Assembly (NCBI RefSeq): GCF_055900595.2 | Contig: NZ_CM148325.1 | DNA: 64,000 nt | Direction: 5' to 3' (one strand) | Shown: one piece after another, positions 3,718 through 5,488 of the stretch | Position numbering within the stretch: the stretch's first letter is position 1 | Layout of the letters: every line of letters begins with the position of its first letter | The notes under the pieces: model-generated | What the model was told of the DNA's origin: nothing | Seen by the model: the letters and a program-made list of their open reading frames with translations, nothing else | The model's database searches: none | Position numbers and translations under genes: made by a program

Positions 3718-4374
<657 letters not shown>

Positions 4375-4457
4375 TGCTTTCAGCCCGCGTTATCGCGGGC
4401 TTCCTGCCTGTAATCTTTCCTTATTCATCGCTGATACGGTGCTAAAGAGTAACCAAT

Positions 4458-4480
4458 AAATGGTATTTAAAATGCAAATT
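4458..4480. promoter_or_regulatory. Imperfect AT-rich palindrome upstream of yeaR, candidate NsrR-type operator
   Basis: aaatggtatttaaaatgcaaatt lies about 65 bp upstream of the yeaR start; yeaR-yoaG is a known nitrosative-stress operon (recalled); the match is judged by eye. Confidence 0.3.
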
Positions 4481-4546
4481 ATCAGGCGTACCCTGAAACG
4501 GCTGAAATAAACTGTTTTCAGCACATTCATCGAAGGAGGGAAAAGG

Positions 4547-4906
4547 ATGCTGCAAATCCCACAGAATTATATTCATACGCGCTCAACGCCTTTCTGGAAT
4601 AAACAAACTGCGCCTGCCGGAATATTCGAACGTCATCTTGATAAAGGAACGCGCCCGGGGGTTTACCCACGCCTTTCCGTTATGCATGGGGCGGTCAAAT
4701 ATCTCGGCTACGCTGATGAACACAGTACAGAGCCTGATCAAGTGATCCTTATCGAAGCGGGGCAGTTTGCGGTGTTCCCTCCAGAAAAGTGGCACAACAT
4801 TGAAGCCATGACTGACGACACTTATTTCAACATTGACTTCTTCGTTGCTCCTGAAGTCCTGATGGAAGGCGCGCAACAACGAAAAGTCATTCATAACGGG
4901 AAATGA
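4547..4906 (+). CDS. yeaR: DUF1971-family protein YeaR
   Basis: 119-aa ORF, GGAGG RBS, forms operon with yoaG; length and synteny match recalled K-12. Confidence 0.85.
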   Translation: MLQIPQNYIHTRSTPFWNKQTAPAGIFERHLDKGTRPGVYPRLSVMHGAVKYLGYADEHSTEPDQVILIEAGQFAVFPPEKWHNIEAMTDDTYFNIDFFVAPEVLMEGAQQRKVIHNGK

Positions 4907-4909
4907 ATC

Positions 4910-5092
4910 ATGGGCAAAGCAACGTATACCGTGACCGTCACCAATAACAGTAATGGCGTTTCTGTCGATTATGAAACAGAGACGCCGATGACTTTGCTGG
5001 TGCCAGAAGTGGCGGCTGAAGTGATAAAAGATCTGGTGAATACCGTGCGTTCTTATGACACGGAAAACGAACATGATGTTTGTGGTTGGTAA
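4910..5092 (+). CDS. yoaG: Small protein YoaG
   Basis: 60-aa ORF MGKATYTVTVTNNSNGVSVDYETETPM starting 4 nt after yeaR stop. Confidence 0.8.
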   Translation: MGKATYTVTVTNNSNGVSVDYETETPMTLLVPEVAAEVIKDLVNTVRSYDTENEHDVCGW

Positions 5093-5239
5093 TTATCACT
5101 GATCGTAGATGGCGCAATTTCTGCGCCATCGCAAAAAAATCCTCCGTGATGCTTGTCACAAATCTTGCCCTCCTGATGTTGTGCTATGCTTTTTATCAGC
5201 GACTAACCCGCTAATGCAAAACAGATAAGTGAGGAAACA

Positions 5240-5488
5240 ATGGGCATTCTGTCATGGATTATTTTTGGGCTTATTGCCGGTATTCTGGCGAAGTGGATCA
5301 TGCCAGGTAAAGATGGTGGTGGATTCTTTATGACTATCCTGCTGGGGATAGTCGGTGCCGTAGTCGGCGGATGGATCAGCACGCTGTTTGGCTTTGGTAA
5401 AGTCGATGGCTTCAATTTTGGCAGCTTCGTGGTTGCCGTTATTGGTGCGATTGTCGTGCTGTTTATCTACAGAAAGATCAAAAGTTAA
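5240..5488 (+). CDS. yeaQ: GlsB/YeaQ/YmgE-family small membrane protein
   Basis: 82-aa ORF MGILSWIIFGLIAGILAKWIMPG with glycine-rich TM helices; RBS GAGGA. Confidence 0.85.
   Translation: MGILSWIIFGLIAGILAKWIMPGKDGGGFFMTILLGIVGAVVGGWISTLFGFGKVDGFNFGSFVVAVIGAIVVLFIYRKIKS

Follow-up and report, generated by a model that had tools for sequence, protein, structure and literature searches.

An 11-1-11 inverted repeat in the yeaR-yoaG promoter of Escherichia coli: a probable NsrR operator sharing DNA with the NarL site and the -35 hexamer

The yeaR-yoaG operon lies downstream of leuE in the analysed window, i.e. the whole stretch of 64,000 nucleotides, and is preceded by an intergenic region of 172 bp. 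This region contains a 23-mer (AAATGGTATTTAAAATGCAAATT), whose letters at positions 4458-4480 are those given in an earlier sequence-only reading. A 212-aa open reading frame (ORF) on the ORF list ends at 4374, upstream of the 23-mer, and the yeaR start codon is located 67 bp downstream of it. The definition of the operon (4547-5092, Table 1) relies on the ORFs, on the RefSeq annotation of identical DNA, and on the K-12 annotation. Matches to positions 4300-5100 were found in 5,419 of 5,426 complete E. coli genomes. DNA identical to this segment is labelled leuE, yeaR (DUF1971), and yoaG (DUF1869) in RefSeq E. coli entries, and the gene order is collinear with b1798-b1796 of K-12 MG1655; the earlier assignment of the downstream genes to yeaR-yoaG is thus right. 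Only 12 of the 5,419 matching genomes are at least 99% identical over these 801 bp, most showing 95-99% identity, so the window originates from an uncommon E. coli lineage. The best matches include the E. coli strains Z0117EC0005 and E200086. Despite this uncommon lineage, the core yeaR promoter is identical to that of K-12.

Table 1. Features of the leuE/yeaR-yoaG region, in positions of the window
Feature	Coordinates	Strand	Remarks
leuE hairpin	4382-4401	+	AGCCCGCG-TTAT-CGCGGGCT; perfect 8-bp stem, GC-rich, just 3' of the leuE stop codon
NarL 7-2-7 activator site	4450-4465	.	TAACCAATAAATGGTA; centre 4457.5 = -43.5; 16-mer and position from PMC10853779
Probable NsrR operator	4458-4480	.	11-1-11 imperfect inverted repeat AAATGGTATTT-A-AAATGCAAATT; centre 4469 = -32
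-35 hexamer	4466-4471	+	TTTAAA, weak, 4/6 vs TTGACA; placed from the start at 4501 and a 17-bp spacer
-10 hexamer	4489-4494	+	TACCCT, 3/6 matches, including A2 and T6; placed from the start at 4501
yeaR-yoaG transcription start	4501	+	G; computed as 4457.5 + 43.5
Predicted 5' mRNA hairpin	4501-4522	+	GCUGAAA, 8-nt loop, UUUCAGC; predicted -10.6 kcal/mol, z -4.6; outside the operator
yeaR	4547-4906	+	119-aa ORF; DUF1971; first gene of the regulated operon
yoaG	4910-5092	+	60-aa ORF; DUF1869; regulated operon 4547-5092

The cryo-EM study of the NarL transcription activation complex on the yeaR promoter (PMC10853779) describes a NarL 7-2-7 site centred at -43.5 and immediately 5' of an "intrinsically weak" yeaR -35 element. 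Since the centre of this site falls at 4457.5 in the window, the transcription start is placed at 4501 and the centre of the 23-mer at -32. The G found at 4501 agrees with the published transcript, whose first base is a G on a scaffold that is native up to +1 (PMC10853779). In these coordinates, the 23-mer runs from -43 to -21 and encloses the -35 hexamer completely. Its right half-site is situated in the spacer between the -35 and -10 elements, and its left half-site overlaps the promoter-proximal NarL heptamer over 8 bp (4458-4465). Neither the shared 8 bp nor the enclosed -35 hexamer had been mentioned in the sequence-only reading. The 23-mer was also considered as a NarL site in its own right, and this was rejected: it holds a single heptamer (AATGGTA, 5/7) and no NarL/NarP 7-2-7 arrangement, and overlaps one heptamer of the real site at 4450-4465. 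A consensus promoter scan of positions 4300-4600 returned no strong sigma-70 promoter, as would be expected if the promoter is weak and depends on an activator; this outcome does not argue against a promoter here. Lin and colleagues are said to have placed the yeaR NsrR operator at -32 in 2007.

Three hairpins accompany these elements. The GC-rich hairpin at 4382-4401 has a counterpart at the equivalent place in most orthologues; it likely serves as the leuE terminator, with a short T-tract, and delimits the yeaR control region on the upstream side. The hairpin at 4501-4522, which the repeat scan likewise detects, recurs at the equivalent place with other stem sequences when five Citrobacter and two Salmonella sequences are folded singly. 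RNAalifold applied to a MAFFT alignment of the 5' untranslated regions (UTRs) yielded no consensus structure, since the alignment does not bring the stems into register, and an Rfam scan of positions 4300-5300 (E<=1) gave no match. This predicted structure at the 5' end of the yeaR mRNA may act as an mRNA stabiliser. Between yoaG and yeaQ, a 9-bp hairpin (GATGGCGCA-ATTTC-TGCGCCATC, 5108-5130) is followed by a run of A rather than of T. The terminator scan 3' of yoaG found no canonical terminator and did not call this hairpin. It may bear on the membership of yeaQ in the operon, which has been questioned (PMC4959519).

The AT-rich imperfect palindrome from which the sequence-only reading started is present, with an A+T content of 83% and symmetry at 8 of 11 positions in the 11-1-11 layout, and is weak as a bare palindrome. 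In all, 120 of the 63,978 23-mers of the window are palindromes of the same quality, and among the 908 that are equally AT-rich, eight are as symmetric. An inverted-repeat search with a 6-nt seed did not report the 23-mer, so the site is not marked by palindromy alone.

A position-weight-matrix scan, proposed earlier as a check in which a poor score would count against NsrR, returned the best score of the window. The main NsrR matrix was built from 16 ChIP-positive sites, with yeaR excluded. It assigns 21.1 bits to the 23-mer (21.5 with a uniform background) and ranks it first among 63,978 window positions, the runner-up reaching 10.2 bits; none of 100 shuffled windows attained this score (shuffle maximum about 13.5 +/- 1.9). 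A second matrix, made from all sites except yeaR, gave the same picture (22.1 bits, rank 1 of 63,978, runner-up 10.9, shuffles 0/100). The 16 training sites span 13.0-30.5 bits, and the 23-mer (21.5 bits) ranks in the upper half of these ChIP-verified sites. It agrees with the NsrR consensus at 18 of 23 bases, and the matrix peak falls in the exact 11-1-11 register AAATGGTATTT-A-AAATGCAAATT. Both halves contribute to the score, with 11.3 and 10.4 bits, respectively. The A at position 21 of the E. coli site is strongly disfavoured (-4.1 bits).

For a comparison across genera, a genome scan with YeaR provided 26 usable orthologous loci from Escherichia, Citrobacter, Salmonella, a Raoultella-labelled MAG, and Silvania, of which the 170 bp 5' of the yeaR start codon were aligned; identities are means of the 21 non-Escherichia sequences relative to the window. 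A conserved block (4448-4494) stands between diverged flanks: mean identity is 0.89 for the NarL site, 0.82 for the NsrR 23-mer, 0.78 for its right half, and 0.89 for the -10 hexamer (TACCCT or TAACCT), compared with 0.32 in the upstream flank and 0.39 in the 5' UTR. In all 26 promoters, the top NsrR matrix match within the 170 bp occupies the aligned position, with 12.5-23.8 bits. Some orthologues carry weaker right halves (AAATATATATT), and Salmonella diarizonae scores 12.5 bits. Conservation of the left half-site is confounded with that of the NarL site and the -35 hexamer; the right half AAATGCAAATT occupies the spacer between the two hexamers, a stretch in which no specific bases are required by sigma-70 or NarL. 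Silvania possesses a near-consensus NsrR site (AAGTCGCATTTTAAATGCATTTT, i.e. AAGTCGCATTT-T-AAATGCATTTT; 23.6 bits) next to a poor NarL 7-2-7 match (3/7 and 4/7), and is the only case of an NsrR site without a good NarL 7-2-7. Three Citrobacter promoters had been considered as further cases in which the NarL site was lost and the NsrR site kept; this was dropped, the replacement TGCCCCTTTTGGTGTA (TGCCCCT-TT-TGGTGTA) matching the heptamers at 6/7 and 5/7.

Within E. coli, the 57-bp core at 4448-4504 is identical to that of K-12 MG1655, all 14 positions at which the intergenic region (175 bp in this comparison) differs from K-12 lie outside it, and about 4,801 of 5,426 complete genomes contain the exact 57-mer. 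The operator shows almost no variation in E. coli, and its conservation extends to other genera.

A variant of the site was encountered in E. coli strain 118, in which T->A at 4473 converts AAAATGC to AAAAAGC in the NsrR right half-site. About 295 of the 5,426 complete E. coli genomes carry this change; among those listed, the carriers are O157:H7 save a few, and other O157:H7 strains have the common allele. The same change is seen in Citrobacter sp. Awk4. Position 4473 corresponds to operator position 16, among the most informative of the right half-site, where T is found in 29 of 32 symmetrised training half-sites, and the substitution lowers the matrix score from 21.5 to 17.2 bits. It should weaken control by NsrR and leave the NarL site and both promoter hexamers untouched.

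The site, its regulator, and the adjacent NarL site are already in the literature; the feature is known, which the sequence-only reading did not notice. PMC5320621 (Table 4) gives the identical 23-mer for yeaR as a predicted NsrR site of the 11-1-11 type, with a PatSer ln P of -17.05 (cut-off -14.28), and the concern that the known operator might map elsewhere in the promoter is thereby removed. With reference to Lin et al. (2007), the same study states that yeaR is "known to be regulated by NsrR", and the yeaR-yoaG operon is described as regulated by NarL and NsrR (PMC4959519). In CFT073 supplied with nitrate, yeaR and yoaG are up 160-168-fold (PMC5320621, PMC4959519). PMC12249550 contained nothing on yeaR. 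In the E. coli K-12 and CFT073 yeaR-yoaG operator, the 23-mer, the 57-bp core (compared with K-12 MG1655), and the flanking genes are all the same as in the window, with no difference within the element. NsrR ChIP-seq of CFT073 in aerobic L broth showed no peak at yeaR, which the authors regard as a probable false negative; in their text, an earlier K-12 ChIP-chip study is not credited with a yeaR peak either (PMC5320621).

Taken together, the matrix rank, the published 23-mer, and the centre at -32 argue for the NsrR operator that had been suggested as possible, a wording that understates the case since the feature is already documented. We consider it very probable that the 23-mer is the operator, in the yeaR-yoaG promoter, of NsrR, an NO-sensing repressor of the Rrf2 family with an iron-sulfur cluster.

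It is much less probable that the block is kept only for the NarL site, the -35 hexamer, and an AT-rich spacer, and that the effect of NsrR on yeaR is indirect, without direct binding. The missing CFT073 ChIP-seq peak (PMC5320621) would suit such an arrangement, as would the overlap of the left half with the NarL site and the -35 hexamer and the mere 8/11 symmetry of the palindrome. Yet the right half AAATGCAAATT, in a spacer free of NarL and sigma-70 demands, still contributes its 10.4 bits at an identity of 0.78, the score of the full site is twice that of any other in the 64 kb, and in Silvania a better NsrR site stands beside a poor NarL 7-2-7 match; in addition, yeaR is treated as a direct NsrR target in the literature (PMC5320621, PMC4959519).

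Slimmer still are the chances that the AT-rich element is mainly a nucleoid-protein site, e.g. for Fis, acting in repression by displacing NarL in rich medium. The A+T content of the DNA is in keeping with this, and Squire and colleagues reportedly described in 2009 a Fis footprint over the yeaR NarL site. However, that footprint is said to overlap the NarL site at -43.5 rather than the -32 element, AT-richness leaves the position-specific match to NsrR sites unexplained, and Fis binding is compatible with NsrR, as the DNA can be common to both. A chance AT-rich near-palindrome without function, to which the 120 equally good palindromes of the window might point, is effectively refuted by the matrix rank and shuffles, the conservation footprint across genera, and the invariance in about 4,800 E. 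coli genomes.

As an NsrR operator, the yeaR site can be set beside the canonical operators of ytfE, hmp, and hcp (11-1-11, AAGATGCATTT-N-AAATGCATCTT), with which it shares the 23-bp architecture and the conserved GYATTT and AAATRC cores. It differs from these operators in several respects: it is less symmetric (8/11), the sequence of its left half is set in part by the NarL heptamer that overlaps it, the -35 hexamer lies at its centre, it has DNA in common with an activator site, and it is ChIP-negative in the CFT073 dataset (PMC5320621). The NarL 7-2-7 of the same promoter (PMC10853779), with which it has the 8 bp at 4458-4465 in common, differs from it in binding another protein through TACYYMT heptamers and in serving activation instead of repression, and the right half of the NsrR site lies outside it.

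According to PMC11500311 and PMC5411485, holo-NsrR acts as the repressor and DNA binding is lost upon reaction with NO. At the yeaR promoter, an NsrR dimer carrying its cluster would occupy the 11-1-11 repeat centred at -32 (-43 to -21). The bound dimer would exclude region 4 of the sigma factor of RNA polymerase as well as phospho-NarL, because the repeat contains the -35 hexamer and the proximal 8 bp of the NarL site. NO would nitrosylate or damage the cluster, leading to the release of NsrR; if nitrate is present, NarL-P would then bind at -43.5 and polymerase would be recruited via the alpha C-terminal domain. Since release of NsrR depends on NO and NarL-P on nitrate, the promoter would integrate both signals. 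In this scheme, the sequence and geometry of the site, its match to the motif, and its evolutionary footprint come from the present analysis, the regulation of yeaR by NsrR and NarL and the position of NarL are taken from the literature, and the steric exclusion of RNA polymerase and NarL is what we infer.

An extension of the scheme, which we regard as rather unlikely, is that about 31 bp (4450-4480) are common to NarL, NsrR, sigma region 4, and Fis, with the growth state setting which repressor is present. The absent ChIP signal in rich aerobic medium would then reflect true displacement, e.g. by Fis, as opposed to a technical false negative.

Activation by NarL is studied on the yeaR promoter as a model system, for which a cryo-EM structure exists, and the operator carries little weight as a discovery. 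It offers a worked example of activator and repressor sites that have 8 bp and the -35 element in common. The operator variant specific to an O157:H7 lineage could alter the NO responsiveness of an operon tied to nitrosative stress and to the fitness of uropathogens.
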